DNA of 64,000 nt from Escherichia coli. Lineage in GTDB: Bacteria > Pseudomonadota > Gammaproteobacteria > Enterobacterales > Enterobacteriaceae. The stretch lies in assembly GCF_009931435.1 (NCBI RefSeq), contig NZ_CP043414.1, one strand, 5' to 3'. Positions 24,327-59,882 of this stretch are shown here, piece after piece (the first letter of the stretch is position 1; each line of letters starts with the position of its first letter). Under the pieces are notes generated by a model, which was given only the letters and a program-made list of their open reading frames with translations, was not told the DNA's origin and did not search any database. The translations under genes were made by a program, and so were the position numbers.

Positions 24327-26519
24327 ATGTCACAGGGGATGTGCATGCTGCGATGGAAACGCTGTATTATGCTAACATTTATCTCTGGAGCTGCTTTTGC
24401 GGCTCCAGAGATAAATGTTGAGCATAAAGAATCGTTACCTGATTTAGGTAGTCAGGCCGCACAACAGGAAGAGCAAACTAACAAGGGTAAATCGCTAAAA
24501 GAGCGTGGTGCCGATTACGTCATTAACTCTGCCACGCAAGGGTTTGAAAACCTCACACCCGAGGCGCTGGAGTCCCAGGCCAGAAGCTATCTGCAAAGTC
24601 AAATTACCTCTACGACACAATCTTATATTGAGGATACACTCTCCCCCTACGGTAAGGTCCGAACGAATCTTTCTCTTGGTCAGGGCGGCGATCTGGATGG
24701 CAGTTCCATCGACTATTTTGTTCCCTGGTATGATAATCAAACTACTGTTTATTTCAGCCAATTTTCTGCACAACGAAAAGAAGATCGTACGATCGGGAAT
24801 ATTGGGCTTGGTGTAAGACATAATTTTGATAGATGGTTATTGGGTGGAAATATATTTTATGATTATGATTTTACCCGTGGGCATCGCCGTTTAGGTTTAG
24901 GTGCCGAAGCCTGGACTGATTATTTAAAATTCTCTGGCAACTATTATCATCCGCTTTCTGACTGGAAAGACTCCGAAGATTTCGATTTTTATGAGGAGCG
25001 TCCTGCGCGCGGTTGGGATATTCGCGCCGAAGCCTGGCTACCTGCTTACCCGCAGCTTGGCGGTAAAATCGTTTTCGAACAGTATTACGGTGATGAAGTC
25101 GCGCTTTTTGGCACCGATAATCTGGAGAAAGATCCCTTCGCCGTCACGCTGGGTGTGAAATACCAGCCCGTACCGCTCATTGCCGTAGGAACGGATTTCA
25201 AAGCCGGCACTGGCGATAATACCGATCTTTCTGTTAACGCAACGCTGAACTACCAGTTTGGCGTCTCGCTCAAAGACCAGCTTGATCCTGACAAAGTAAG
25301 CGCGGCTCACTCGCTCATGGGCAGCCGTCACGACTTTGTTGAACGTAACAACTTTATTGTTCTGGAATACAAAGAGAAAGATCCCCTCGATGTCACTTTG
25401 TGGCTGAAAGCTGATGCGACGAATGAACATCCCGAGTGCGTGATTAAAGATACGCCAGAAGCAGCCATCGGGCTGGAAAAATGTAAGTGGACCATTAACG
25501 CGCTCATTAATCATCATTACAAAATCGTTGCTGCCTCCTGGCAGGCGAAAAACAATGCTGCACGTACGCTGGTGATGCCGGTTATCAAAGAAAATACGCT
25601 TACCGAAGGGAACAACAATCACTGGAATCTGGTGCTGCCTGCCTGGCAGTACAGCTCTGATAAAGCCGACCAGGAAAAACTCAATACCTGGCGGGTACGC
25701 CTGGCGCTGGAAGATGAAAAAGGCAATCGGCAGAACTCCGGCGTGGTGGAAATTACCGTTCAGCAGGACCGTAAAATTGAGCTCATTGTTAACAACATCG
25801 CCAATGTACCGGATGAGAACAATCACAGCCACGAAGCCAGCGCGCAAGCGGATGGTGTAGATGGTGTCGTCATGGATCTCGACGTTACCGATAGCTTTGG
25901 CGACAACACTGACCGTAACGGTAATGTCTTGCCGCAGGATAATCTCAGCCCGCAGCTGTTTGATGCCAACGATAAAAAAGTGACGCTGACGAATAAACCC
26001 TGCACCACCGAAGTGCCGTGCGTTTTTATCGTCAAACAAGATAAAGAAAAGGGGACCGTTACGCTCTCCAGTACGTTGCCCGGCACTTTCCGCTGGAAGG
26101 CGAAAGCCGCCCCTTATGATGACAGTAACTATGTTGACGTAACGTTCCTGGGTTCTGACATCGGCGGGCTGAATGCTTTTATCTACCGCGTTGGTGCAGC
26201 TAAGCCCGTCAATCTTATCGGCAACAAAGAACCGTTGCCTCTCAATAGCCGCTATCGCTTTGTGCTGTGGCGCGACGCTAACAAAGACGGCGTGTTCCAG
26301 CTTTCTGAGAAGCTCACTGACGATGAGATGAAACAGTATGACTATCAGTGGGAATTCACGGGGCATAGCGTAAATGGCAATACCGGTGCGCAAACCAATA
26401 CCACGAACGTCGATATAGAGATCCCGGCAACCAACAAGGAAGCGGCAGCAAAGTTTAGTGCCCAGGTAACCGATGGCGTGCAGGGATACGGTTTGCAGGT
26501 CAATTACAGCAAGAAATAG
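24327..26519 (+). CDS. sinH: Intimin/invasin-family outer-membrane protein (inverse autotransporter), SinH-like
   Basis: 730-aa ORF; signal-like N-terminus (alternative start at 24345, MLRWKRCIMLTFISGAAFA); central inverse-autotransporter-type beta-barrel region; located between yfgJ and xseA as in the Salmonella CS54-type island (from memory). Confidence 0.7.
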   Translation: MSQGMCMLRWKRCIMLTFISGAAFAAPEINVEHKESLPDLGSQAAQQEEQTNKGKSLKERGADYVINSATQGFENLTPEALESQARSYLQSQITSTTQSYIEDTLSPYGKVRTNLSLGQGGDLDGSSIDYFVPWYDNQTTVYFSQFSAQRKEDRTIGNIGLGVRHNFDRWLLGGNIFYDYDFTRGHRRLGLGAEAWTDYLKFSGNYYHPLSDWKDSEDFDFYEERPARGWDIRAEAWLPAYPQLGGKIVFEQYYGDEVALFGTDNLEKDPFAVTLGVKYQPVPLIAVGTDFKAGTGDNTDLSVNATLNYQFGVSLKDQLDPDKVSAAHSLMGSRHDFVERNNFIVLEYKEKDPLDVTLWLKADATNEHPECVIKDTPEAAIGLEKCKWTINALINHHYKIVAASWQAKNNAARTLVMPVIKENTLTEGNNNHWNLVLPAWQYSSDKADQEKLNTWRVRLALEDEKGNRQNSGVVEITVQQDRKIELIVNNIANVPDENNHSHEASAQADGVDGVVMDLDVTDSFGDNTDRNGNVLPQDNLSPQLFDANDKKVTLTNKPCTTEVPCVFIVKQDKEKGTVTLSSTLPGTFRWKAKAAPYDDSNYVDVTFLGSDIGGLNAFIYRVGAAKPVNLIGNKEPLPLNSRYRFVLWRDANKDGVFQLSEKLTDDEMKQYDYQWEFTGHSVNGNTGAQTNTTNVDIEIPATNKEAAAKFSAQVTDGVQGYGLQVNYSKK

Positions 26520-26574
26520 GGTCGGCGCCATGGCTGATCGGGCCACCGCTGAATATTAATCAAGGAGAGTGTTT

Positions 26575-27567
26575 ATGAAACCTGATATGAAACGTGGCCT
26601 GACAAAAGTCGCGCTCGCGTTGATGCTGGCTGGATACTGTGCCGTACCAGCCGCTATGGCGGAAGATGCCGCCTGGGTCGCCAGTGGAGCGACCGCTGAA
26701 TTCGAAGGGACTATACCCTGGCTCTATCGCGAAGGGGGGAATGCCACGATTAACTCGGAAGATGCGGATCACATTAAAGTGACGTCTGATGGTAAAGGGA
26801 CCCGCCCTGCAGGTAGCGAGACGGATAAACGCCTTTACTCAGGGGATACCATCACGCTGGGATGGGATATCGGCGATACCGAAGGGGATGTTGATGATGG
26901 TCCCGCAGGCATTGATGCGAAAACGACGGCCACTATCAAATGGTACAGCTACAGCAATAATGCGGGTGGCGATAAAACGGAGCTGACCGCAGCGGCAGGC
27001 AAGACGAGTTATAAACTCACTGATGACGATCGTGGGCGTTATATCGGTGTTGAAATCCAGCCCATCACCCAGACCGGTAATCCCTTCGAGGGAACGTCGC
27101 TGACTCTGCTGGATATTTCAACGGCCAGCGGTGGCGGCAGCGATACGGACAATGTCGATCCCGGCCCGGTTGTGAACCAGAATCTGAAAGTTGCCATCTT
27201 CGAGAAAGGCACCACTACCAACCTTATCGGTGGTAACACGGCCATTGCGCTTAATAAAACGTATGTGGCCAAACTGTACTCGGATGAAAACCAGAACGAT
27301 AAATACGACGCAGGTACGGATATGGACGTTACCGCTAACTATGACTTTGCATGGGTCTTTAACGGTAACAGTAAACAACTTGCTGCGGCGGGCGGTATTG
27401 CTAATGCCAGCTTCGATAACAATGACATTGTTATCCCGCAAACTAACGAAGAAGCAAGAACCAGCCTTAATGGTAGTGACCGTAATGGTAAGAGTGGTCT
27501 TGCGATCCCGGCAAACGGCGACGGCGTTCAGGGCTATACGCTGTCTATCATTTACAAACACCACTAA
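26575..27567 (+). CDS. sinI: Secreted SinI-like protein, homologous to the SinH C-terminal module
   Basis: ORF 26569-27567; ATG at 26575 preceded by aaggag RBS; signal peptide MKPDMKRGLTKVALALMLAGYCAVPAAMA; C-terminal DGVQGYTLSIIYKHH parallels SinH C-terminal DGVQGYGLQVNYSKK. Confidence 0.65.
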   Translation: MKPDMKRGLTKVALALMLAGYCAVPAAMAEDAAWVASGATAEFEGTIPWLYREGGNATINSEDADHIKVTSDGKGTRPAGSETDKRLYSGDTITLGWDIGDTEGDVDDGPAGIDAKTTATIKWYSYSNNAGGDKTELTAAAGKTSYKLTDDDRGRYIGVEIQPITQTGNPFEGTSLTLLDISTASGGGSDTDNVDPGPVVNQNLKVAIFEKGTTTNLIGGNTAIALNKTYVAKLYSDENQNDKYDAGTDMDVTANYDFAWVFNGNSKQLAAAGGIANASFDNNDIVIPQTNEEARTSLNGSDRNGKSGLAIPANGDGVQGYTLSIIYKHH

Positions 27568-30600: not shown

Positions 30601-33600
30601 TAACGGCGCACAGGCCATCGGCGGCGATACGCCGGTTTACGTCAGTTGCCTGACGACGGCGAACAAACCTGCCAGCAGCATTACGCTGGATGTGGTTGAT
30701 AACGCACAGTGGGCTGCCGGAAATAACGCGGCGAAGCTGAAAAAAGGCGAAACGCTACGGGTTAAGGTAACGGTAAAAGATGCGCAGGGTAATCCGCTCA
30801 CGGATATGCCATTTAAACTGAGTCGCGGAGACGGTTATACCCGCACGGGCGAAAAACATATTGCCGGTAGTGGCGATGCGCTGGTGGCACCGGTGGTGAT
30901 TAACAGTGGGCTGGCGGATGAAACGACGTTGAACGACACCGCGGGATTTTATACTGCCATGACCGGTAGCGACGGCAGCAAAATCCTCAATATTACCCGC
31001 CCGGATACTCACGGCACCAAAACGGCGCTGACGGCGACGTTGTATTCCGATCCAACAAAAAAAGACAGCCTGGATACAATCTTTACTGTGGTCACCAGCC
31101 CGGATAGTAGCAAAGCGAAAATGTGGGGGCATATGCCGGAAACGGTGACGGCTGCGGACGGTACGGTATTTAAACGCCCGCTGTTGTTGAAGGAACTGGC
31201 CTATCAGACTGGGCGAACATCGACGTCTGAAGACAATGAAAACTGGGCGTTGTTTAACATTAATTATGCGAGTTCTTCCACGACGTATAGTGGCTGTGGA
31301 ACCAACTATATTCCGACTCAAGCCGGTCTGACGTCACTGTTTGCTAATAATGCGGGCAACACCATGAAAACCGTGCAGGGCTGGCCGGTGGCAACACGCT
31401 ATTTGTCCAACACGTCCGACAACGGCAGCATGGAGCAGCGTAACTACAAGGCGGTAGATCTCAGCAATGGCACGAGTGCGGCAGTGTCATCAACGGCGCT
31501 GCAACTGCTGACCTGCCAGACCACGCCGGTAACCACGGTGGGCCAAATTCTGCTGGAAGCGGCAGATCCGGCGACGCTGGATACCACCTATAACGTGGTA
31601 AAAGCGAAAAAAGGCGAAGAATCCGTGGTGCGCGTCACCACCAAAGATACGCAAGGCAACCTGGTGGGCAATACGGCATTTATCCTGACGCGTGCCAACA
31701 GCGTGAGTCGGGCTAACGCATCAGCAACCGCGAGCGTGGGCGCGCTGACGGTGACGGATGCTTGGGGAAATACGCGAAATAATTTCCAGTCGACGAGTGA
31801 AACGATTTACGGCGTGACTGGTGCAGACGGGTCAACGACATTTACCCTGAAACAGGATAACAGTACCGGGTTAAGAACCGATCTCACGGCAAAACTGGAT
31901 ACGTCCAGCAGCGTCAAGGCGACGCTACCGGTGGTCTTTACTGTCGTGACCAGCCCGGATTCGCCAAAAGCGAATTTTTGGGGACATATGGCCGAAACGG
32001 TGATGGCCTCCGACGGTACAATCTATAAACGACCACTGTTGTTGAAAGAGCTGAGTAACACCAGTGGTCGAAATTCTACGGCTGAAAACGGTGAAGATTG
32101 GGCAAGATTCACCTGGACTCAGTCGGCTGACACCAGCATGAATGGGTGTGGTACAGATTATATGCCGACGCTGGATGGACTGAAGTCTTTGTATGACGCC
32201 AATAGCGGTAATGTGATGAGTACGGTGCAGGGATGGCCGGTAAAAACGACCTATCTCACCAATACCCCGAGTGATACGCAAACAGGGAGCCGTTACTACA
32301 ATGTGGTGCAACTGAATACTGGTGCAGTCTCACAAATCTCGACGAACACAGTCGTGCAACAAACCTGCCGCACAACGCCGTTGACGGCTGCTAGCCAGAT
32401 TACGCTGGAGGCCTCAGACCCCTCGCAATTTGTCAGCATTGACAGTACGCTTAGCGCGATCAAAGTGCAGAAAGGCGATAGCGTGTCGATCCGCATTTCG
32501 ACTAAAGATGCACAGGGGAATTTAGTCGGCAATACGCCGTTTGCCCTGAAACACGCTAACCCGGTCAATCGCCAAAATGTGGCGTCAACATCGCAGAAAG
32601 TGTCGGTCACGACTGCGTCGGGTACGACGGTGGATACCACTGCATCGACCATTCTGTATGGCGTGACCGGGCCAGACGGAACCACCACGATGACACTCCG
32701 ACAGGATGTGTCTACTGGACTCAAAACCGACTTTTATGCTCTGTTGAACGATACCGGCGTGTCGTCGAACACCTTGCCAGTGATCTTCACCGTCGTCACC
32801 AGCCCGGATACACCGCTGGCGGCCAACTGGGGGCATATGGCGGAAACCTTTACCAGCAGCAAGGGCGTCACCTTCAAACGGCCTTTCCTCAAAGCTGAAC
32901 TTTCTGGTGGTACGGCGGTAACGACCAATAATGAAGTCTGGTCGCGCCTGACAGCAACGGAGAAAACGGATGCCAGCAAGGCTGGGTGTGATGAGAGTTA
33001 TCAACCGCTGATGACTGACATGCAGGGGTTGTATGCGGATTACCCTAACAACCAGTTGGGCACGGTGCTCGGCTTGCCGACTTCCGCCGGGTATATGTGG
33101 GCCTACGACATGATGACGGTTTCTGGCAGCAGCTGGAGCAACCAGGCATATTCGCTCGTTAATGGTCAGACAGTTCAGGCATCGTCCAGTTATACGGCGG
33201 TAGTGATGTGCCTGGTGGAACCGCATACCGTTCCGGCGATGATAGAGATCACTTCAACAGCACAGGATGCGGCAAAAACGGTCAGCAATGGTGGTCGACC
33301 GAGCGCCGTAGCGAAGAAAGGTGAGACGATTCCGCTGACGGTGACCGTACGTGATAGCACCGGGAATCCGGTACCCTACGCCGACTTTACCCTCACGCGT
33401 GGAACGACGCTGGATCGCTCGAAAGCAACCGTTAACTCGAGTGCGGACGATCTTACCGTGAAGTCATTGATACCCGCGAACAGCGACGCTGGGCTGACGG
33501 CAAATGGGGCAAAAGTGCTCAGAACAACGGGCAGTGATGGCACAGCCACCTTTGAAGTGAGCCAGAATGCCACGACAGGTCTGGCGACACCGATAACCGT

Positions 33601-35761
33601 CACGCTGGCGCGCGATACAACCAAAACCGCCACGCTGGATGTTATCTACACGGTGATAACCAGCCCGGACTCACCGAGCGCGAAATTCTGGGGATACATG
33701 CCGGACACCTTTACCAGTTCGGCAGGCGTCACCTTCAGACGACCGCTCCTGAAAGCCGAAGCGACTTCAGGGTCATCGATTAGCACTAACGGCAATGGTG
33801 AAGTGTGGTCGTATATGAGCAACGTTCAAAATTTAACATCGACAGATTGTCCGCTGGAGAATCAACCGCGCAGTAATGAATTGTTGGATTTGTATAATGA
33901 TCATCCCAACGGCGCGATAATGACTGACCTGGGGCTGCCGATATATGCAGGCAAGTGGTGGGCTTATGATATGGTCATGCCGGATTTATATACGTGGCAG
34001 TATCAGACTGTCAGCCTGAGCGCAGGAGATATCGCGAAGAGCTCGGCAAACAACGCGCTGATGCTTTGCCTGGCGAAGCCGCATCCGGCAGGCGTCAGCG
34101 TAATGTTGACGTCATCCGCAATGGATAACGCCAGAACCCTCAGTAATGGCGGGCGACCCAGCGCGTCAGTGAAAAAAGGTAACCCACTGCCAATTGTGGT
34201 GACGGTCAAAGATCGTGATGGCAACCCGCTGGCGGGAGAGGCCGTTACGCTCAGGCGTGGTTCAGCGATGAGCCGTTCAGGAGCAGGAGTGGGCACGCCG
34301 GCAAATGCAATGACGTTGACAGAGTTGACACCTGTGTCGGCGGAGTTTTCTCTGGCCGCACACGATACGCAATGGCAAGGTTTCACCGGCAGTGATGGTA
34401 CGGCCACTTTCAATGTTGAACAGCCTGAGACCATCGGCCTGGCCATTCCGTTCACCGCTATACTGGCGCGAGATGTCGCAACTACCAGCGTCCTTGATAC
34501 GATCTTTACCGTCGTCACCAGCCCGGATTCCGCAATGGCGACCTACTGGGGCCATATGCCGGATACGGTAACGGCGGAAAACGGCGTGGTCTTTGAACGG
34601 CCTAAATTGTTGAAAGAGCTGCCGTCGAGCGCCGGAGTCAGTCAGGTGACGGATAACAATGAAGTGTGGCCGTTGTTTAAGGCAACGCAAAGGGAAGATA
34701 GCAGCCTCAGTCCTTGTGAAGCGGCACGTCGGCCATTGAGCGATGATTTATTATCGCTCTACGCGCGCTATCCGGGGAACACGCTGACGACTCAAATCGG
34801 CTGGTCTACGAAGTATGCATGGTGGGCACTGGATAACAAGCAGGGGAATGCCCTGGTTGTCAGTCTGAATAATGGTTTTGAGTCGTCGACGGCGAGTACG
34901 GGGTATCAGGGATGTCTGGTCAATCCCCGCGCGACCGTCTCCAGCGTCACGCTGACATCGACGGTGATAGATGCCACTACGCAGGCGGCGAAGGTAAAAA
35001 AAGGTGAAGCCGCGCCCGTCGTTGTTACCGTAAAAGACAGCGCCGGGAAGCCGGTACCGAATGTCGCTTTCACCTTAAAACGTGGTGATGCCGTGCCGCG
35101 TAACAGCGGGGCGACGTTGTATGGTGATGTTGCGGCGATGGATGATATGACGGTACAACCTGCCAGCGGGACGGTGGTAACGCTGGCTGACAGTGGGAAT
35201 ACGATCGACGGTGTGACAGGGGCGGACGGTACGGCAAGTTTTGCCGTTCGTCAGGATAATACGCCAGGATATAAAACGCCGTTGACGGTGACGCTGACGG
35301 ATAACGCCACAATAACGGCGACGCTGGATACGATTTTCACCGTGCCGACCAGCCCGAATGTCGCCACGGCGTATTTCTGGGGGCATATGGCGGATACCGC
35401 CACCGTAAGTGGCAAGACGTTACATCGCCCGCTATTGCAATCAGAGTTGCCGTCAGGGGCTACAGCGGCAGTAGCGCCAACGGTGAATAATGAAATCTGG
35501 GCGCTGGCACATGTGATCGATGCTCAAAAATGGGATATTGCAAAGCAGTGCGGTGACTTTAGTAGAGCACCGAGCTATACCGATTTACAGTCGTTACATA
35601 GCAGCTTTAGCGCGCTGGGATGGCCATCATCGATAAGCTTCCCCTATTTCTCTACCGATCGGGCCGGTTCGTTCTATTGTGGCATGGATGAAGGGGCGGG
35701 GACACAAAACTGCGGTATTCAGGCATCCAGTACTGCGGGGTTTGCAACCTGTTTCCAGTAG
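27677..35761 (+). CDS. ratA: Giant RatA/RatB-like repetitive surface or secreted protein (Big_1-type Ig-like domains)
   Basis: 2694-aa uninterrupted ORF; N-terminal signal ([17 protein letters not shown]); nine tandem repeats each with a Big_1-like strand (e.g. [13 protein letters not shown]), a TSPD motif and a WGHM motif; last gene of island, convergent with xseA. Confidence 0.65.
28640..35400 (+). repeat. Nine tandem, divergent coding repeats (period 804-861 nt) inside the ratA-like gene
   Basis: The tgg-ggN-cat/tac-atg (WGHM/WGYM) motif recurs at 28670, 29474, 30278, 31124, 31979, 32828, 33689, 34547, 35378; each is preceded by accagcccgga (TSPD). Confidence 0.85.
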
Positions 35762-35816
35762 TCTTAACGGGTCTGTAAATGGGGGCCAAGATGTAAATAA
35801 GATTCGCAATACGTCA

Positions 35817-37214
<1,398 letters not shown>

Positions 37215-37261
37215 TTATTCAGTCGATAGTAACCCGCCCTCCGGGGATAGCAAGCATTTTT

Positions 37262-37310
37262 TGCAAAAAGGGGTAGATGCAATCGGTTACGCTCTGTATA
37301 ATGCCGCGGC
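37262..37310 (+). promoter_or_regulatory. Probable guaBA promoter (-10 tataat at 37297-37302, GC-rich discriminator gccgcggc)
   Basis: Consensus -10 hexamer about 45 nt upstream of guaB ATG with upstream A/T tract; the -35 element is not confidently placed. Confidence 0.45.
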
Positions 37311-37345
37311 AATATTTATTAACCACTCTGGTCGAGATATTGCCC

Positions 37346-38812
37346 ATGCTACGTATCGCTAAAGAAGCTCTGACGTTTGACGACGTTCTCCTCGTTCCTG
37401 CACATTCTACCGTTCTGCCGAATACCGCTGACCTCAGCACCCAGCTGACGAAAACTATTCGTCTGAATATCCCTATGCTCTCCGCAGCAATGGATACCGT
37501 AACGGAAGCGCGCCTGGCTATCGCCCTGGCTCAGGAAGGCGGTATCGGCTTTATCCACAAAAACATGTCCATTGAACGCCAGGCTGAAGAAGTTCGCCGC
37601 GTGAAAAAACACGAATCTGGCGTGGTAACCGATCCGCAGACTGTTCTGCCGACAACCACCCTGCGTGAAGTGAAAGAACTGACCGAGCGTAACGGCTTTG
37701 CAGGCTATCCGGTAGTTACCGAAGAAAACGAACTGGTCGGCATCATCACCGGTCGTGACGTGCGTTTTGTTACCGACCTGAACCAGCCGGTCAGCGTTTA
37801 CATGACGCCGAAAGAGCGTCTGGTAACCGTGCGTGAAGGCGAAGCCCGTGAAGTTGTGCTGGCAAAAATGCACGAAAAACGCGTTGAAAAAGCGCTGGTG
37901 GTTGATGATGAATTCCACCTGATCGGCATGATCACTGTGAAGGACTTCCAGAAAGCGGAGCGTAAACCGAACGCCTGTAAAGACGAGCAAGGCCGTCTGC
38001 GTGTTGGTGCAGCGGTTGGTGCAGGTGCGGGTAACGAAGAGCGTGTTGATGCGCTGGTTGCCGCAGGCGTTGACGTTCTGCTGATCGACTCCTCTCACGG
38101 TCACTCTGAAGGCGTTCTGCAGCGTATCCGTGAAACTCGCGCTAAATATCCTGATCTGCAAATCATCGGCGGCAACGTGGCAACAGCTGCAGGTGCCCGC
38201 GCGCTGGCAGAAGCCGGTTGCAGTGCCGTTAAAGTGGGTATCGGCCCTGGTTCTATTTGTACTACCCGCATTGTTACTGGCGTCGGTGTTCCGCAGATCA
38301 CCGCCGTTGCTGACGCAGTAGAAGCCCTGGAAGGCACCGGGATTCCGGTTATCGCAGACGGTGGTATTCGTTTCTCTGGCGATATCGCGAAAGCTATCGC
38401 TGCTGGTGCAAGCGCGGTGATGGTAGGCTCCATGCTGGCGGGTACTGAAGAATCCCCGGGTGAAATCGAACTCTACCAGGGCCGTTCTTACAAGTCTTAC
38501 CGTGGGATGGGCTCTCTGGGCGCGATGTCCAAAGGTTCTTCTGACCGTTACTTCCAGAGCGACAACGCTGCCGACAAACTGGTGCCGGAAGGTATCGAAG
38601 GCCGTGTAGCCTACAAAGGTCGTCTGAAAGAGATCATTCACCAGCAGATGGGCGGCCTGCGCTCCTGTATGGGCCTGACCGGCTGTGGTACTATCGACGA
38701 ACTGCGTACTAAAGCGGAGTTTGTACGTATCAGCGGTGCGGGCATTCAGGAAAGCCACGTTCACGACGTGACCATTACTAAAGAGTCCCCGAACTACCGT
38801 CTGGGCTCCTGA
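37346..38812 (+). CDS. guaB: IMP dehydrogenase
   Basis: ORF 37277-38812; ATG at 37346 gives [16 protein letters not shown]... (488 aa); catalytic Cys loop [11 protein letters not shown]. Confidence 0.97.
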
Positions 38813-38880
38813 TTCTCTTCGCCCGACTTCATGTCGGGCGATTTATATTATCTGTTTCACTTGCCTCGGAATAAGCGTCA

Positions 38881-40458
38881 ATGACGGAAAACATTCATAA
38901 GCATCGCATCCTCATTCTGGACTTCGGTTCTCAGTACACCCAACTGGTTGCGCGCCGCGTGCGTGAACTGGGTGTTTACTGCGAACTGTGGGCGTGGGAT
39001 GTGACAGAAGCACAAATTCGTGACTTCAATCCAAGCGGCATTATTCTTTCCGGCGGCCCGGAAAGCACCACCGAAGAAAACAGCCCGCGTGCGCCGCAGT
39101 ATGTCTTTGAAGCAGGCGTACCGGTATTCGGCGTTTGCTATGGTATGCAGACCATGGCAATGCAGTTGGGTGGTCATGTTGAAGCCTCTAACGAACGTGA
39201 ATTTGGCTATGCGCAGGTTGAAGTCGTAAACGACAGCGCACTGGTTCGCGGTATCGAAGATGCTCTGACAGCAGACGGTAAACCTCTGCTCGATGTCTGG
39301 ATGAGCCACGGCGATAAAGTTACCGCTATCCCGTCCGACTTCATCACCGTAGCCAGCACCGAAAGCTGCCCGTTCGCCATCATGGCAAATGAAGAAAAAC
39401 GCTTCTATGGCGTACAGTTCCACCCGGAAGTGACTCATACCCGCCAGGGGATGCGCATGCTGGAGCGTTTTGTGCGTGATATCTGCCAGTGTGAAGCCCT
39501 GTGGACGCCAGCGAAAATTATCGACGATGCAGTAGCCCGTATCCGCGAGCAGGTAGGCGACGATAAAGTGATCCTCGGCCTCTCTGGTGGCGTGGATTCC
39601 TCCGTGACTGCAATGCTGCTGCACCGCGCAATCGGCAAAAACCTGACTTGCGTATTCGTTGACAACGGCCTGCTGCGTCTCAACGAAGCAGAGCAGGTTC
39701 TGGATATGTTTGGCGATCACTTTGGTCTGAACATTGTTCACGTTCCGGCAGAAGATCGCTTCTTGTCAGCGCTGGCTGGTGAAAACGATCCGGAAGCAAA
39801 ACGTAAAATCATCGGTCGCGTTTTCGTTGAAGTATTCGATGAAGAAGCGCTGAAACTGGAAGATGTGAAGTGGCTGGCGCAGGGTACTATCTACCCTGAT
39901 GTTATCGAATCTGCCGCGTCTGCAACCGGTAAAGCTCACGTCATCAAATCTCACCACAACGTGGGCGGCCTGCCGAAAGAGATGAAGATGGGCCTGGTTG
40001 AACCGCTGAAAGAGCTGTTCAAAGACGAAGTGCGTAAAATTGGTCTGGAGCTGGGCCTGCCGTACGACATGCTGTACCGTCACCCGTTCCCGGGACCAGG
40101 GCTTGGCGTTCGTGTGCTGGGCGAAGTGAAGAAAGAGTACTGCGACCTGCTGCGCCGTGCTGATGCCATCTTCATTGAAGAACTGCGTAAAGCGGACCTG
40201 TACGACAAAGTTAGCCAGGCGTTTACCGTGTTCCTGCCGGTACGTTCTGTTGGCGTAATGGGCGATGGTCGTAAATACGACTGGGTTGTGTCTCTGCGTG
40301 CCGTCGAAACCATCGACTTTATGACCGCACACTGGGCACATCTGCCGTACGATTTCCTTGGTCGCGTTTCCAACCGCATTATCAATGAAGTGAACGGTAT
40401 TTCCCGCGTGGTGTATGACATCAGCGGCAAGCCGCCAGCGACTATTGAGTGGGAGTAG
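38881..40458 (+). CDS. guaA: GMP synthase (glutamine-hydrolysing)
   Basis: 525-aa ORF; GATase motif GVCYGMQ; PP-loop SGGVDSSV; C-terminal ...PPATIEWE. Confidence 0.97.
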
Positions 40459-40503
40459 GACTGGCTATAAATAGTAAATTAAGCCTTTCCAACTAACTTT
40501 AAT

Positions 40504-40536
40504 GCCAGTCAGTTTGCTGACTGGCATTTTTTATTG
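40504..40536 (+). terminator. guaA rho-independent terminator (gccagtcagtttgctgactggc then attttttatt)
   Basis: Perfect hairpin plus T-tract 45 nt after guaA stop. Confidence 0.7.
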
Positions 40537-40604
40537 GTTTTTCATTGAGTTTATGACTTCTATTTTTAAGGCCGTAACTCTATAACATCGGCTATGGCCT
40601 AAAG

Positions 40605-40632
40605 ATAAAAGCCATTACCAACAAAATGGCGG
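40605..40632 (-). terminator. Probable minus-strand terminator downstream of the membrane receiver-like gene
   Basis: Minus-strand reading gccattttgttggtaatggc followed by ttttatcttt; lies about 120 nt downstream of the ORF ending at 40753. Confidence 0.45.
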
Positions 40633-40752
40633 TATTCCAAAACAGTCTAGCCGGAAGTGCTTACAATGAGATCGATCAAATCGACAAATGAGATACTGGC
40701 CGTTGTGAGCGCCCGGCAACCGTAGCCGTAGGGGGCGAATTTAATGGCTTTG

Positions 40753-41529
40753 TTATGAGCCATTGGTAATCGCACCCATGACAATTTGAAAGAGTTCTTC
40801 TGCTCGATTAGTGGAGCCAATTGCACCTCTTTCTCTCGCCATTCTCTTGTGCTCTGGTAGATCTGAGGACGCATAGATCATAAAAGGAGTTTTGTCTCCC
40901 ATTGCGCGTAATCTTTCTAGTAAGACATAACCTTCTTGCGCCCCTTCTTTGCGATCCATATCCGAAATAATAGCTGCAAACTTATTTGTTTTTAACAATT
41001 CCAAGGCTTCGTCAGTTGAAAGAGCTAAAGCGAACTCTATTCCCTGTGCCTCAAATGCCTGTCTTTCGTAAACATTATTTTCTGGTCGATCATCCACCCA
41101 TAAAATACGATTTCGCCATTTTTCATGCTTACTCTGCCGTTTTGCATTGGATACAACGTTGACGATTTTTTGCAGTTGGCTTTCAGTGACCCCTGCACTA
41201 TTTTCAGGCTGTTTTGCTGTGGCGGCGGTCAATGATGCTGCTGTAGCTATTTGCGCTCTTAAAAAATTATTTTCATCTTTGAAATCTGACGGCCCGTAAA
41301 GCTTATTATGATGTTTCGCAACAAGCCAGAGAAAGCCAAGAAACACAATGACAGGAAAGAAAACCATGAAATAAATAAGGGGAGCTATATGCTCTGATAA
41401 GCCATTACCAAAGCCAACGACGAAAGAGGCAAATCCATAAACGAGAACAATAAAGAGTGCAATGATACCAAGAGGGCTTTTGGTAAATCCTATTGCAGTT
41501 TCAGCAAATTTCTCTGGTTCCATATCCAT
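40753..41529 (-). CDS. Hypothetical membrane protein: two N-terminal TM helices plus a C-terminal CheY-like receiver-like domain (accessory gene, not in K-12 layout)
   Basis: 258-aa ORF; TM segments GIIALFIVLVYGFASFVVGF and IAPLIYFMVFFPVIVFLGFLWLV; C-terminal REC-like pattern ILWVDDRPENN / AAIISDMDR / TPFMIYASSD / GAIGSTNRAEEL with N/R where the conserved REC Lys is expected; AT-rich codon usage. Confidence 0.7.
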   Translation of the reverse strand: MDMEPEKFAETAIGFTKSPLGIIALFIVLVYGFASFVVGFGNGLSEHIAPLIYFMVFFPVIVFLGFLWLVAKHHNKLYGPSDFKDENNFLRAQIATAASLTAATAKQPENSAGVTESQLQKIVNVVSNAKRQSKHEKWRNRILWVDDRPENNVYERQAFEAQGIEFALALSTDEALELLKTNKFAAIISDMDRKEGAQEGYVLLERLRAMGDKTPFMIYASSDLPEHKRMARERGAIGSTNRAEELFQIVMGAITNGS

Positions 41530-41616
41530 CCTCAGTATTGCTCATAACACAGTTAAGTTGTATTAGATCAGACCTGATCTGACAATTACCGGCTATTTAT
41601 AAAGGTATCTGTCAGA

Positions 41617-42012
41617 TTACATCTGGCTTAAGTTTTTCTCATCCCAGATGTGCTTTCCATCAAGTAACGTTTCCATCGGCGTTCGGCCACTGCACATTTT
41701 TCCCTGATGGGTTCGCTCATTATTATAGTGAACCCGCCATTCATCAAGAACCGATTGTAATGCTTCAAGATCATCATATAACTTTTTGCGGAACGTCACC
41801 TGATAAAACTCGTTCAGTATCGTTTTATGGAACTGCTCGCAGATACTATTGGTCTTAGATGACATTGCTTTCGTTTTCGTATGCTCAATATCATTTATCG
41901 CCAGATAAAGCTGGTAATCATGCTGCTCCACTTTACCGCAATCTCTTGGTGTATTGAGAGGCGGGTTATAAAATAAATACTGATACCATGAGGGCGGATC
42001 AATCGTGGTCAT
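41617..42012 (-). pseudogene. Truncated DDE (rve-type) transposase, C-terminal fragment only: IS remnant
   Basis: 131-aa ORF with integrase-core C-terminal signatures NSICEQFHKTILNEF and WRVHYNNERTHQG...GRTP; upstream DD catalytic region and DNA-binding N-terminus are absent. Confidence 0.6.
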
Positions 42013-42027
42013 AGTATCAGGTCATTC

Positions 42028-43542
42028 TCATGGGTTTATTGCGTCCCTGAAGATGACGTCGCTGACCATCTCTCCTCCAAGAAAATCGATCAACATATTC
42101 GAGTTTTCAAGGTCTTCTCTGGTCAATGCCCCGATTGCTTGTCCAACTACTACCTCCCAAGGTTTTTTACACTCAACAATAGCACAGACGAGTTGGCGGA
42201 TTTTCTTGATCTTCTTGTGACGCAATCGGTCGTTCGATTCCATTAGTTCTGCAATCAACGCTATGTCGGAGTGTGTTTGATTATCCTCAACCCATTTTTT
42301 GGCTGCGTCTACAAATTCCACCCATGTAACATTCATTACTGCAAGGCATGAATCAGTCAAAAGAACATTTTCGATAGCGTAGCATCGTAAGCGATAGCGT
42401 TTAAGAGGTAGGCGATGTTCAAGCGACTTGTTGATTACACCATCGCCATCACGAAGGGAAAAGGCGATTGGATTGTCATAGAGTGTACTAAGGAGGTCTA
42501 CGCAAAAATCCTCAAGTTGACTCTGTTGATCTACGCTACCTGCTAGTACGGGAAAGATTTTTATTCGACCCTGTGATGTTCTGGCCGCTTGTTGCCAGAC
42601 TCGTTCGTCGTCCTCTCCTTCCAAAATTAATGCAGCGTCTTCGCTAAGAGAAAGCGATAGGGGGTGCCCGAAGAATGGTGCAATCTTTCGAAGTTCATCG
42701 CTGGCCGGTATCAATGAGATTTCATTTACTGCAAAGCTCTTCGTGCCGATTGATACATATGGGGAGGCGGCAAGAGAACAGACGAGCGGGGAACTATGGG
42801 TGGATAAGCATATGGCAATACTGTTCGCGTGTGTTCTAAATTCGTCGAGCATACTGATTATCAGCTTGCCCAGTCTAGCTTGGAGGTCGGGGTGCAGATG
42901 TACATCAGGCTCATCGAGGAGGAGTACGTTGAATTTCTCCGGATCTATTGTGTCGAAGAAATAGATGATTTCCGCGGCTAATGCAACCGCTTCCGATTCA
43001 CCGCTACTGATTTGGGCCGGATCAATAATCTGACCATCTACAAGTGATCGAAACTCATAATCGACATTACCCATCTCGAGCGAAATGTTAGTGAGAAGCT
43101 GATTAATTTTACTTAATCGGTCTGTCTGAAAGTTTCGCGTTAGATCAGTTCGAATTTCCGGAGTATTGGCAAGTCGACGTAAGTAAAGCGTCTCGGCCTC
43201 GCGAAATAGCATAGCCGATGCAGCTTTGAAGTTGCTTGCCTGATTAACTGCCCGAGTGTGCCTCAGCCATTCGGGGTTGTCGCTCATATTTGTGAGGACG
43301 GTGCCATCACGCTTGAACGATCCTGCTCGCTCTGGACTTACATACCGGACATAAAATTGCTGCTTGTTCTGGCTGATTGTTTGTTCGATATCGCGAAGGA
43401 AACGACTTTTTCCCGCACCGTTTCGGCCCATAATTATGTTGATGTTGTTTAAGCCGTAAAGTCGGCCAATTTGGCTAGATAACTCGCTTACTTTCAAGAT
43501 TGTAACTCCATTTCTTGTTGCCACATACGGTAACAAATACAC
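42028..43542 (-). CDS. OLD-family-like ATPase-nuclease (ABC-type ATPase fused to TOPRIM-like domain); accessory gene
   Basis: 504-aa ORF with GTG start at 43542; Walker A GRNGAGKS (43405-43428), ABC-signature-like ISSGES, Walker B/D-loop VLLLDEPDVHLHP, H-loop STHS; C-terminal TOPRIM-like LILEGEDDE (~42610-42630) and RDGDG (~42440-42454). Confidence 0.75.
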   Translation of the reverse strand: MYLLPYVATRNGVTILKVSELSSQIGRLYGLNNINIIMGRNGAGKSRFLRDIEQTISQNKQQFYVRYVSPERAGSFKRDGTVLTNMSDNPEWLRHTRAVNQASNFKAASAMLFREAETLYLRRLANTPEIRTDLTRNFQTDRLSKINQLLTNISLEMGNVDYEFRSLVDGQIIDPAQISSGESEAVALAAEIIYFFDTIDPEKFNVLLLDEPDVHLHPDLQARLGKLIISMLDEFRTHANSIAICLSTHSSPLVCSLAASPYVSIGTKSFAVNEISLIPASDELRKIAPFFGHPLSLSLSEDAALILEGEDDERVWQQAARTSQGRIKIFPVLAGSVDQQSQLEDFCVDLLSTLYDNPIAFSLRDGDGVINKSLEHRLPLKRYRLRCYAIENVLLTDSCLAVMNVTWVEFVDAAKKWVEDNQTHSDIALIAELMESNDRLRHKKIKKIRQLVCAIVECKKPWEVVVGQAIGALTREDLENSNMLIDFLGGEMVSDVIFRDAINP

Positions 43543-43573
43543 TAACTGAATAGGTGCGTTGATGCCTCATTTT

Positions 43574-43606
43574 GTTCACATCTATGTTGAAATTAGTGAT
43601 GTGAAC
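43574..43606. promoter_or_regulatory. 9-bp perfect inverted repeat (gttcacatc N15 gatgtgaac) upstream of the ATPase gene: candidate operator
   Basis: Read directly: gttcacatc at 43574-43582 and gatgtgaac at 43598-43606, 32-64 nt upstream of the GTG start at 43542. Confidence 0.35.
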
Positions 43607-43802
43607 GAGCTAAGGACTCTATTAGGAGTAGAGCGGCCATATTGTTCGTCTGAACAGCCTGTAGACAGCTCTATTATTGAGACATGGTATTTTTCGTGGT
43701 ATCTGCTAAGTAGTTTGTTTCAAGGCATTGATTTATTTATATTTTATTTTCTCATTGATAGCTGAGTGGGAATGATTTGATCCCTGCACTATGAATTAGC
43801 AA

Positions 43803-48077: not shown

Positions 48078-51690
<3,613 letters not shown>

Positions 51691-51819
51691 TACCACTTTT
51701 ACTCCGTTTTATTCACGGGACACTGCCTGGATATTATGGCGAGCAATATTGGCAGATGTCCAACTATGCCAGAAAAGGGGGAAAAAAACTGCTGGAGCTT
51801 GCGATTTACAGGTGAATTG

Positions 51820-51861: not shown

Positions 51862-52499
51862 TTACTCGTCGGCAGCGTAGCCCTGCGGCGGCAGACGTTG
51901 ACCATCCAGCCACGCGGCGTTTTCGTGCATTTTCAGACGACCATCGGCAAACCAGCTAATCACCAGTGGATAAATAGCGTGTTCCTGGGTTTGCACGCGG
52001 GCGGTGATGTCATCCTCCGTATCACCAGCAAATACCGGGACTTTCGCCTGTAAAATAACCGGGCCACCGTCCAGTTCATCGGTGACGAAATGCACCGATG
52101 TACCGTGCTCTTCATCGCCATTTTCCAGCGCCTGACGATGGGTGTGTAATCCGGGATATTTCGGCAGCAGAGAAGGGTGAATGTTCAGCAAACGCCCGGC
52201 ATAGTGGGAGACAAACGCCGGGCTGAGAATGCGCATAAAACCAGCCAGCACGACCACATCGGGTGCGTACATGTCGATTTCATGAATCAACTCCCGGTCA
52301 TAGGCTTCACGACTGTCAAACGCGCTGGCGATGAGCGTATGCGTTGCAATACCCGCCTGGCGGGCGCGTTCAAGGCCGAACGCGTCGGCCTTATTGCTGA
52401 AAACTGCCCGTACGGTGCCTTTAATTTTATTGGTTTTGCAGGAGTCAATAATTGCCTGCAAATTACTTCCGTTGCCGGAAATAAGCACCACAATATTCA

Positions 52500-52500
<1 letters not shown>
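51862..52500 (-). CDS. purN: Phosphoribosylglycinamide formyltransferase
   Basis: 212-aa ORF MNIVVLISGNGSNLQAIIDSC...; start overlaps purM stop (TAATG). Confidence 0.95.
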
Positions 52501-53555
<1,055 letters not shown>

Positions 53556-53600
53556 TTACTTGCGGTAGAAAAATAAAATTCGGCGCAATTCTAACAGGGA

Positions 53601-53616
53601 AAGCAAACGTTTGCGA
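53601..53616. promoter_or_regulatory. PurR operator (pur box) aagcaaacgtttgcga in the purM control region
   Basis: Near-perfect match to the palindromic pur-box core GCAAACGTTTGC, about 65 nt upstream of the purM start. Confidence 0.7.
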
Positions 53617-53861
53617 GACTGCTTTACACAACCTTTTTGCACGTCTTTTCCCCAGGCGCGCGGCGAAAGAATACTTGTACCAGGGCAAAGGATCGTTTTC
53701 GGATGGAATAATCTTCTTCCATAACCATTTGAATACAAAATAACTTTATCTCAAACCGTTATCATTTTGACTAAAGTCAACGAAAATAATATTGCCGCCT
53801 TGAAGAAAGGAGGTATAATCCGTCGATTTTTTTTGTGGCTGCCCCTCAAAGGAGAAAGAGT

Positions 53862-54488
53862 ATGAAGATCGTGGAAGTCAAACACCCACTCGTCAAACAC
53901 AAGCTGGGACTGATGCGTGAGCAAGATATCAGCACCAAGCGCTTTCGCGAACTCGCTTCCGAAGTGGGTAGCCTGCTGACTTACGAAGCGACCGCCGACC
54001 TCGAAACGGAAAAAGTAACTATCGAAGGCTGGAACGGCCCGGTAGAAATCGACCAGATCAAAGGTAAGAAAATTACCGTGGTGCCAATTTTACGTGCCGG
54101 TCTGGGGATGATGGACGGTGTGCTGGAAAACGTTCCGAGCGCGCGCATCAGCGTCGTCGGTATGTACCGTAATGAAGAAACGCTGGAGCCGGTACCGTAC
54201 TTCCAGAAACTGGTTTCTAACATCGATGAGCGTATGGCGCTGATCGTTGACCCAATGCTGGCAACCGGTGGTTCCGTTATCGCGACCATCGACCTGCTGA
54301 AAAAAGCGGGCTGCAGCAGCATCAAAGTTCTGGTGCTGGTAGCTGCGCCAGAAGGTATCGCAGCGCTGGAAAAAGCGCACCCGGACGTCGAACTGTATAC
54401 TGCATCGATTGACCAGGGACTGAACGAGCACGGATACATTATTCCGGGCCTCGGCGATGCCGGTGACAAAATCTTTGGTACGAAATAA
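53862..54488 (+). CDS. upp: Uracil phosphoribosyltransferase
   Basis: ORF 53835-54488; ATG at 53862 gives [20 protein letters not shown]... (208 aa). Confidence 0.95.
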
Positions 54489-54573: not shown

Positions 54574-55863
54574 ATGACGCGCCGTGCTATCGGGGTGAGT
54601 GAAAGACCGCCACTTTTACAAACAATCCCGCTTAGTTTGCAACATTTGTTCGCCATGTTTGGTGCAACCGTCCTGGTGCCCGTCTTATTTCATATTAACC
54701 CGGCGACTGTACTGTTATTCAATGGTATCGGGACGCTGCTGTATCTCTTCATCTGTAAAGGGAAAATCCCGGCTTATCTTGGTTCCAGCTTTGCCTTTAT
54801 TTCACCGGTATTGTTACTGTTGCCGTTAGGGTATGAAGTCGCGCTGGGCGGCTTTATTATGTGCGGCGTGCTGTTCTGCCTGGTTTCTTTTATCGTGAAG
54901 AAAGCGGGGACCGGCTGGCTGGACGTGCTGTTTCCACCTGCGGCAATGGGCGCAATCGTTGCCGTCATCGGTCTGGAGTTGGCGGGCGTAGCTGCCGGTA
55001 TGGCAGGTTTACTCCCGGCTGAAGGGCAAACGCCAGACTCCAAAACCATCATCATCTCCATTACCACGCTGGCAGTCACGGTTTTAGGTTCCGTGCTGTT
55101 TCGTGGTTTCCTGGCAATTATCCCGATTTTAATTGGCGTGCTGGTGGGCTACGCGCTCTCTTTCGCAATGGGAATTGTCGATACTACGCCGATTATTAAT
55201 GCTCACTGGTTTGCGCTGCCAACTCTCTATACGCCGCGCTTCGAGTGGTTTGCCATTCTGACTATTCTGCCAGCGGCGTTAGTGGTTATTGCCGAACACG
55301 TAGGGCACCTGGTGGTAACGGCTAATATCGTCAAAAAAGATCTGCTGCGCGATCCAGGTCTGCACCGTTCGATGTTTGCTAACGGCTTGTCGACCGTGAT
55401 CTCCGGCTTCTTTGGCTCCACGCCAAATACTACCTACGGGGAAAACATTGGCGTGATGGCGATCACCCGTGTTTACAGTACCTGGGTTATCGGCGGGGCG
55501 GCGATTTTCGCTATCCTGCTTTCCTGCGTCGGTAAACTGGCTGCTGCTATCCAGATGATCCCATTGCCGGTGATGGGCGGCGTTTCGCTGCTGCTTTATG
55601 GTGTTATCGGTGCTTCCGGTATTCGTGTTTTGATCGAATCGAAAGTGGATTACAACAAAGCACAGAACCTGATCCTGACTTCTGTCATTTTGATCATCGG
55701 TGTCAGTGGCGCGAAGGTAAACATCGGCGCGGCGGAGCTGAAAGGTATGGCGCTGGCGACCATCGTCGGTATCGGCTTAAGTTTGATCTTCAAACTGATT
55801 AGTGTGCTGCGCCCTGAAGAAGTGGTGCTGGACGCAGAAGACGCGGATATAACAGACAAATAA
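54574..55863 (+). CDS. uraA: Uracil:proton symporter
   Basis: ORF 54532-55863; ATG at 54574 gives [20 protein letters not shown]... (429 aa); polytopic NCS2-family membrane protein. Confidence 0.95.
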
Positions 55864-58820: not shown

Positions 58821-59882
58821 ATGCTCGAAATGTTGATGCAATGGTATCGCCGCCGTTTTAGTGACCCGGAAGCGATTGCCTTGCTGGTTATTTTAGTTGC
58901 CGGATTTGGCATTATCTTTTTCTTTAGCGGCCTACTCGCACCGTTGCTGGTGGCGATTGTGCTGGCCTATTTACTGGAATGGCCAACCGTGCGCCTACAA
59001 TCAATAGGCTGCTCCCGACGTTGGGCGACATCGATTGTATTGGTCGTTTTCGTCGGTATTTTGCTGCTGATGGCGTTCGTGGTAATGCCTATCGCCTGGC
59101 AACAGGGCATCTACTTAATCCGTGATATGCCGGGGATGCTCAATAAGCTCTCTGATTTTGCCGCCACGTTGCCGCGCCGCTATCCGGCGTTAATGGATGC
59201 GGGGATTATTGATGCAATGGCCGAAAATATGCGCAGCCGAATGCTCACCATGGGCGATTCGGTGGTGAAAATTTCCCTCGCCTCGCTGGTCGGTTTGCTG
59301 ACCATTGCCGTCTATCTGGTGCTGGTGCCATTGATGGTCTTCTTCCTGCTGAAAGACAAAGAGCAAATGTTGAACGCCGTTCGCCGGGTGCTGCCGCGTA
59401 ACCGTGGTCTGGCAGGCCAGGTGTGGAAGGAGATGAATCAACAAATCACCAACTATATCCGTGGGAAAGTGCTGGAGATGATCGTGGTGGGGATTGCCAC
59501 CTGGCTGGGATTCTTACTCTTCGGGCTGAACTATTCGCTGCTGCTGGCGGTGCTGGTCGGCTTCTCGGTACTTATTCCGTACATTGGTGCATTTGTGGTG
59601 ACCATTCCGGTGGTTGGCGTGGCGCTATTCCAGTTTGGTGCTGGCACGGAATTCTGGAGCTGCTTCGCGGTGTATCTGATCATTCAGGCGCTGGACGGCA
59701 ACCTGTTAGTACCTGTGTTGTTCTCCGAAGCGGTTAACCTGCATCCGCTGGTCATTATTTTATCAGTAGTGATCTTCGGTGGTTTGTGGGGATTCTGGGG
59801 CGTATTCTTCGCCATTCCATTGGCGACGCTGATCAAAGCCGTGATTCACGCCTGGCCCGATGGGCAAATCGCGCAAGAATAA
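58821..59882 (+). CDS. perM: AI-2E-family transporter PerM (YfgO)
   Basis: 353-aa polytopic membrane ORF; conserved position between bepA and focB. Confidence 0.85.
   Translation: MLEMLMQWYRRRFSDPEAIALLVILVAGFGIIFFFSGLLAPLLVAIVLAYLLEWPTVRLQSIGCSRRWATSIVLVVFVGILLLMAFVVMPIAWQQGIYLIRDMPGMLNKLSDFAATLPRRYPALMDAGIIDAMAENMRSRMLTMGDSVVKISLASLVGLLTIAVYLVLVPLMVFFLLKDKEQMLNAVRRVLPRNRGLAGQVWKEMNQQITNYIRGKVLEMIVVGIATWLGFLLFGLNYSLLLAVLVGFSVLIPYIGAFVVTIPVVGVALFQFGAGTEFWSCFAVYLIIQALDGNLLVPVLFSEAVNLHPLVIILSVVIFGGLWGFWGVFFAIPLATLIKAVIHAWPDGQIAQE

Follow-up and report, generated by a model that had tools for sequence, protein, structure and literature searches.

The window analyzed here, a stretch of 64,000 nucleotides of Escherichia coli DNA, contains the purMN operon and the divergently transcribed upp gene, together with the following neighbors:

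49624-51696, minus strand: ppk, assigned from its open reading frame and annotated E. coli genomes.
51862-52500, minus strand: purN (212 aa), the second gene of the operon, whose ATG shares one base with the purM stop codon.
52500-53537, minus strand: purM (345 aa, GTG start), the first gene of the purMN operon, assigned from its open reading frame and the b2499 annotation of NC_000913.
53862-54488, plus strand: upp, with its ATG at 53862.
Downstream of upp, plus strand: uraA and hda, assigned from their open reading frames and annotated genomes.

Both purM and upp were identified through 99.9% DNA identity to annotated E. coli genomes, and the start of purM was placed at the GTG at 53537 because this codon lies at the same distance from the pur box described below as the annotated K-12 start; an in-frame GTG further upstream, at 53552, only opens the mechanical open reading frame. 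The GTG start and a GGGGA ribosome-binding site are kept across a 22-sequence Enterobacterales alignment. A gap of 324 bp separates the purM and upp starts, and the earlier note was thus correct in placing its site in the purM-upp divergent region. Of the 5426 complete E. coli genomes searched, 5424 matched the 701 bp around the site over at least 80% of its length, at 95-100% identity. On the upp side of the intergenic region, positions 53792-53835 contain the upp promoter (TTGCCG, a 16-bp spacer, and TATAAT), followed at 53825-53835 by a G, an A, eight T residues, and a G. This long T tract is the known element for UTP-sensitive start-site selection and reiterative transcription, phenomena reportedly described at upp by Tu and Turnbough in 1997 and by Cheng et al. 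in 2001.

On the purM side, an operator and a predicted promoter are arranged as follows:

53601-53616, minus strand: 16-bp PurR operator (pur box), reading TCGCAAACGTTTGCTT in the direction of purM.
53603-53614, no strand assigned: perfect 12-bp palindromic core GCAAACGTTTGC with a central CpG, located by exact-match search.
53611-53616, minus strand: weak -35-like hexamer TCGCAA, a candidate from sequence inspection that matches TTGACA at 3 of 6 positions and lies inside the pur box.
53588-53597, minus strand: predicted extended -10 element of purM, CTGTTAGAAT (TG at 53596-53595, hexamer TAGAAT at 53593-53588), recognized by its invariance in the alignment.
53580-53581, minus strand: predicted purM transcription start, G at 53581 or A at 53580, placed by a spacing of 7-8 nt after the -10 hexamer.

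The plus-strand letters at 53601-53616 are AAGCAAACGTTTGCGA, and the pur box with a perfect palindromic core that had been proposed at these positions is real: the exact core occurs once in the 64 kb, at 53603-53614, against a chance expectation of 0.01 copies per window in dinucleotide-preserving shuffles. In the purM direction, the 16-mer fits all specified positions of the consensus CGCAAACGTTTNCNT and departs from the consensus ACGNAAACGTTTGCNT at position 1 alone. The box lies upstream of purM, with 64 nt between its last base and the GTG.

To score the site, a PurR position weight matrix (PWM) was built in leave-one-out fashion from the 27 other PurR motifs in the ChIP-chip table of Cho et al. 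(2011; PMC3159470), with the purMN site excluded. The purM box scores 17.16 bits, which ranks third among 127,970 positions and falls within the 12.1-24.9 bits spanned by the published sites, compared with a window background of -22.8 bits on average (sd 8.2). From the exact score distribution, such a score has a probability of 7.8e-7 per position, corresponding to 0.10 expected matches in the whole window (both strands) and 5e-4 in the intergenic region; the low matrix score that the earlier note had named as grounds for refutation was accordingly not obtained.

Five sites in the window reach at least 15 bits, namely the purM box, one site each in the guaBA and yfgO/bepA regions, and two sites internal to open reading frames. 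The guaBA motif, GCGTAACCGATTGCAT, located upstream of guaB, and the motif of the yfgO/bepA (yfgC) region, CCGGAAGCGATTGCCT, are both identical to published PurR ChIP-chip motifs (positions 37277-37292 and 58866-58881 hold this pair) and belonged to the training set of the matrix. One of the internal sites, ACGGCAACGATTGCGC at 54950-54965 on the minus strand, lies within the uraA coding sequence, scores above the purM operator at 17.9 bits, and maps about 1 kb outside the published purM-purN ChIP-chip region; it represents an unoccupied look-alike or else a weak site within the gene. The other, AGGTAACCGATGGCGT at 26464-26479 on the plus strand, scores 17.6 bits and is found about 40 nt before the stop codon of a 730-aa open reading frame (24327-26519) and about 90 nt upstream of another (26569-27567), in a neighborhood that in another strain codes for the intimin-like protein SinH and an adhesin. 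Both internal sites are missing from the PurR site table of Cho et al. (PMC3159470). A PWM score is by itself no proof of binding and is insufficient to call an operator; as the matrix alone would flag two internal sites that lack ChIP support, genomic context and conservation are needed for such a call.

The purM promoter was placed from sequence conservation. The element CTGnTAGAAT fits the extended -10 type TGnTAnnnT and probably acts as the purM -10, with a spacer of 17 bp between TCGCAA and TAGAAT. A consensus promoter scanner run over 53450-53950 reported no promoter on the minus (purM) strand and gave that of upp as its sole promoter, the purM promoter having been missed because its -35 hexamer has only 3 of the 6 consensus bases. 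Relative to the predicted start, the pur box extends from about -36 to -20, with its center at -27.5 or -28.5, in agreement with the general location of PurR sites between -35 and -10 (Cho et al., 2011; PMC3159470). The earlier note had also considered that the site might fall inside the transcribed leader in a way incompatible with repression; judged by the predicted start, the box instead ends 7 nt upstream of the invariant -10 element.

This arrangement, in which the box covers the -35 and the spacer of the predicted promoter, fits a repression mechanism based on the blocking of RNA polymerase. The PurR dimer has been described to bind its boxes only when loaded with hypoxanthine or guanine, and to block RNA polymerase in doing so (PMC10912719). 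At purM, abundant hypoxanthine or guanine would thus yield corepressor-loaded PurR dimers that bind the 16-bp pseudo-palindrome; the bound repressor would cover the weak -35 and most of the spacer of the extended -10 promoter, excluding RNA polymerase, and transcription of purM and purN, which account for steps 5 and 3 of de novo IMP synthesis, would then drop. Given that the transcription start is itself a prediction, promoter occlusion carries the same conditional standing.

Conservation was considered both within the species and across the gamma-proteobacteria. The 44 bp that comprise the box and the -10 element occur once, at an identity of at least 99%, which for a 44-base query is effectively exact, in 5415 of the 5426 complete genomes, whereas the surrounding 701 bp reach only 95-99% identity in 3598 records. 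For the wider comparison, loci were gathered by the PurM protein rather than by the box, with one genome for each of 80 gamma-proteobacterial species; a box was called at 12 bits or more on a symmetrized matrix within at most 300 bp upstream of purM, and 900 nt of purM coding sequence served as the control. A box was found upstream of purM in 66 of the 80 species, versus 1 of 80 in the coding-sequence control, with representatives in Enterobacterales, Pasteurellaceae, Vibrionaceae, and Aeromonas. At this threshold and distance, the Alteromonadales, Shewanella, Rheinheimera, and Orbaceae loci had no box, and neither did one Pasteurellaceae locus (L078).

At finer resolution, the alignment of 22 Enterobacterales sequences (21 species and the window) shows 11 of the 12 core positions to be invariant and the remaining one to be at least 90% conserved. 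Within the promoter region, conservation forms two islands, the box and the invariant CTGnTAGAAT, and the stretch upstream of the box is unconserved. Moreover, the gap between box and hexamer is exactly 7 nt in all 40 of the 40 Enterobacterales loci in which the box pattern matched. A divergent upp neighbor was present at 50 of the 80 loci.

Published binding data bear directly on the site. The purM-purN motif listed under a PurR ChIP-chip peak in Table 1 of Cho et al. (2011; PMC3159470) is letter-for-letter the 16-mer of the window, and the log2 enrichment of PurR at purM-purN in K-12 was 2.08 with adenine versus 0.98 without it. In addition, Liu et al. (2011; PMC3266220) cloned the purM-upp intergenic region on a high-copy plasmid and found that removal of AAACGTTTGCTT from this clone weakened the protection it confers, which they ascribe to PurR titration. 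The comparison with mapped PurR sites that the earlier note had suggested therefore returns a match on two counts, to the ChIP-chip motif (PMC3159470) and to the deleted site (PMC3266220). The upp side of the same intergenic region holds a further palindrome, TTGACTAAAGTCAA at 53767-53780, which corresponds to an FNR site (TTGACTTTAGTCAA on the other strand), and deletion of the FNR site from a multicopy plasmid likewise shifts drug tolerance (PMC3266220). The references for PurR sites in the RegulonDB evidence paper include He 1990, Liu 2011, and Meng 1990.

Taken with its PWM score, its identity to a mapped site, and its promoter position, all of which support the proposed assignment to the purMN control region, the element at 53601-53616 is almost certainly the purMN operator for the LacI-family purine repressor PurR, and promoter occlusion goes with the best explanation of it. 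It is a classical and already known site of the PurR regulon, and nothing is new at the operator itself. As part of the K-12 regulon, it reportedly goes back to He et al. and to Meng et al., both of 1990.

Several other readings of the element were weighed against a PurR operator for purMN. As LacI-family operators have the AANCGNTT center in common and are palindromes with a central CG, the box could in principle serve another family member, such as GalR/GalS, Cra, CytR, or RbsR, and cross-recognition does occur, given the overlap between PurR operators and the sites found by GalR ChIP-chip at the purR gene (PMC5110547). When GalR, the one regulator of this group that was scored, was represented by a PWM from 17 ChIP-chip sites, however, the purM box scored no higher than 4.7 bits, whereas the training sites span 16.4-22.1 bits, and a GalR/GalS operator of the GTGnAAnCGnTTnCAC type was rejected for falling so far below the training minimum of 16.4 bits. 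The purM/upp region is also absent from the list of 15 GalR-bound regions (PMC5110547), and it is PurR itself that has been chromatin-immunoprecipitated on the purM-purN site (PMC3159470); an operator dedicated to one of these relatives is accordingly highly improbable. The view of the box as a chance palindrome or a structural element (a cruciform or an RNA hairpin) without a repressor role draws on the ease with which short palindromes arise by chance and on the lack of enrichment of the core in the window when two mismatches are allowed (3 seen versus 5.7 expected), a search that is uninformative. Against it stand the rarity with which the exact core is expected per window, the retention of the site across gamma-proteobacterial orders but not of its upstream flank, the absence of a terminator-like site from 53450-53950 according to the scanner, the predicted start, which puts the pur box upstream of the transcript, and the published occupancy by PurR in vivo (PMC3159470). 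Conservation and ChIP data have already effectively refuted this reading, and its likelihood is vanishingly small.

A somewhat less remote, but still unlikely, alternative is that of a shared operator, from which PurR bound at the purM box would also repress or modulate upp. The box does lie within the shared 324-bp intergenic region, and some pyrimidine genes, carAB, pyrD, and codBA among them, are under PurR regulation (PMC3159470). Nevertheless, the purM box is located about 200 bp upstream of the -10 hexamer of upp (53814-53819), too far for occlusion, and upp goes unmentioned throughout Cho et al. (0 occurrences; PMC3159470). The spacing of the box, furthermore, is fixed to the -10 element of purM and not to upp, and where upp does not occur within 1.5 kb, as in eight Enterobacteriaceae loci, the position of the box relative to purM is unchanged; the operator therefore belongs to purM. 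The description of the site as lying in the divergent region stands, the one correction being that the operator is that of purM rather than of the shared region.

The purMN operator of PurR can be compared with those of other genes and strains. In E. coli K-12, the operator has the identical 16-mer, the same 64 nt to the GTG, and matching flanking genes, and the operator and core promoter of the window show no differences from it; the strain of the window is not K-12 and is 99.9% identical to several E. coli isolates over the 701 bp. The boxes of purF, purT, purHD, purL, purC, and purEK are, like that of purM, 16-bp pseudo-palindromes with a central CG and a AAACGTTTGC core, and they sit, as the purM box does, at the promoters of de novo purine genes. 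The purM box differs from these six in starting with T instead of A and in ending with CTT instead of CGT, which explains its 17.2 bits in comparison to the 19.6-24.9 bits of the others. The purB and purR sites have the repressor and the motif in common with the purM site, but they are roadblock sites within the open reading frame, at which elongation is blocked, whereas the purM site is upstream of the predicted start.

The cross-species set also revealed a shift in spacing. In Vibrionaceae and Aeromonas, the box is located about 17-25 nt upstream of CTGnTAGAAT, as opposed to 7 nt in Enterobacterales (shifted loci L045, L051, L058, L060, L062, L067, L068, L071-L073, L075, and L076, at about 1400-1450 in each). 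The box is therefore some 10-18 nt further upstream than its Enterobacterales counterpart, with the -10 element unchanged, and in several Vibrio loci the gap of 18 nt amounts to an 11-nt shift, or roughly one helical turn. Most Pasteurellaceae resemble Enterobacterales in having 7 nt between the end of the box and the -10 hexamer, and in these two groups the box may double as the -35 element. That the shift represents a lineage-specific re-phasing of repressor versus polymerase is a tentative and rather doubtful proposal, and one that may already have been described in comparative work on the purine regulon.

Elsewhere in the window, two further features deserve mention. Directly after the guaA stop codon, about 3.3 kb (40455-43762) are present that are absent from strain 2016C-3878; this insertion has three minus-strand open reading frames of 258, 131, and 504 aa, which are annotated in other genomes as an AAA ATPase, a response regulator, and an integrase-core protein, and its organization is an IS21-like layout with an extra gene. 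Only 27 of the 5426 complete genomes cover at least 80% of the interval 40400-43800. Adjacent to it, positions 31973-40454 are only 89% identical to strain 2016C-3878, compared with 97.6% for positions 43763-64000; the equivalent region of that strain contains the end of an adhesin gene, followed by xseA, guaB, and guaA. Such divergence is unusual for core genes within a species, and the adhesin gene may be its driver.

In terms of the biology of E. coli, the finding ties the expression of purMN to purine availability via a PurR operator, its significance being confined to correct annotation. The purM operator is among the strongest PurR-occupied sites of the E. coli genome, and its pur box is useful as a positive control in motif scanning. 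When present in multicopy, the operator appears able to titrate PurR and thereby to alter drug tolerance (PMC3266220). Finally, the re-phasing of the box in Vibrionaceae and Aeromonas, if true, would alter the strength or mechanism of repression between orders.
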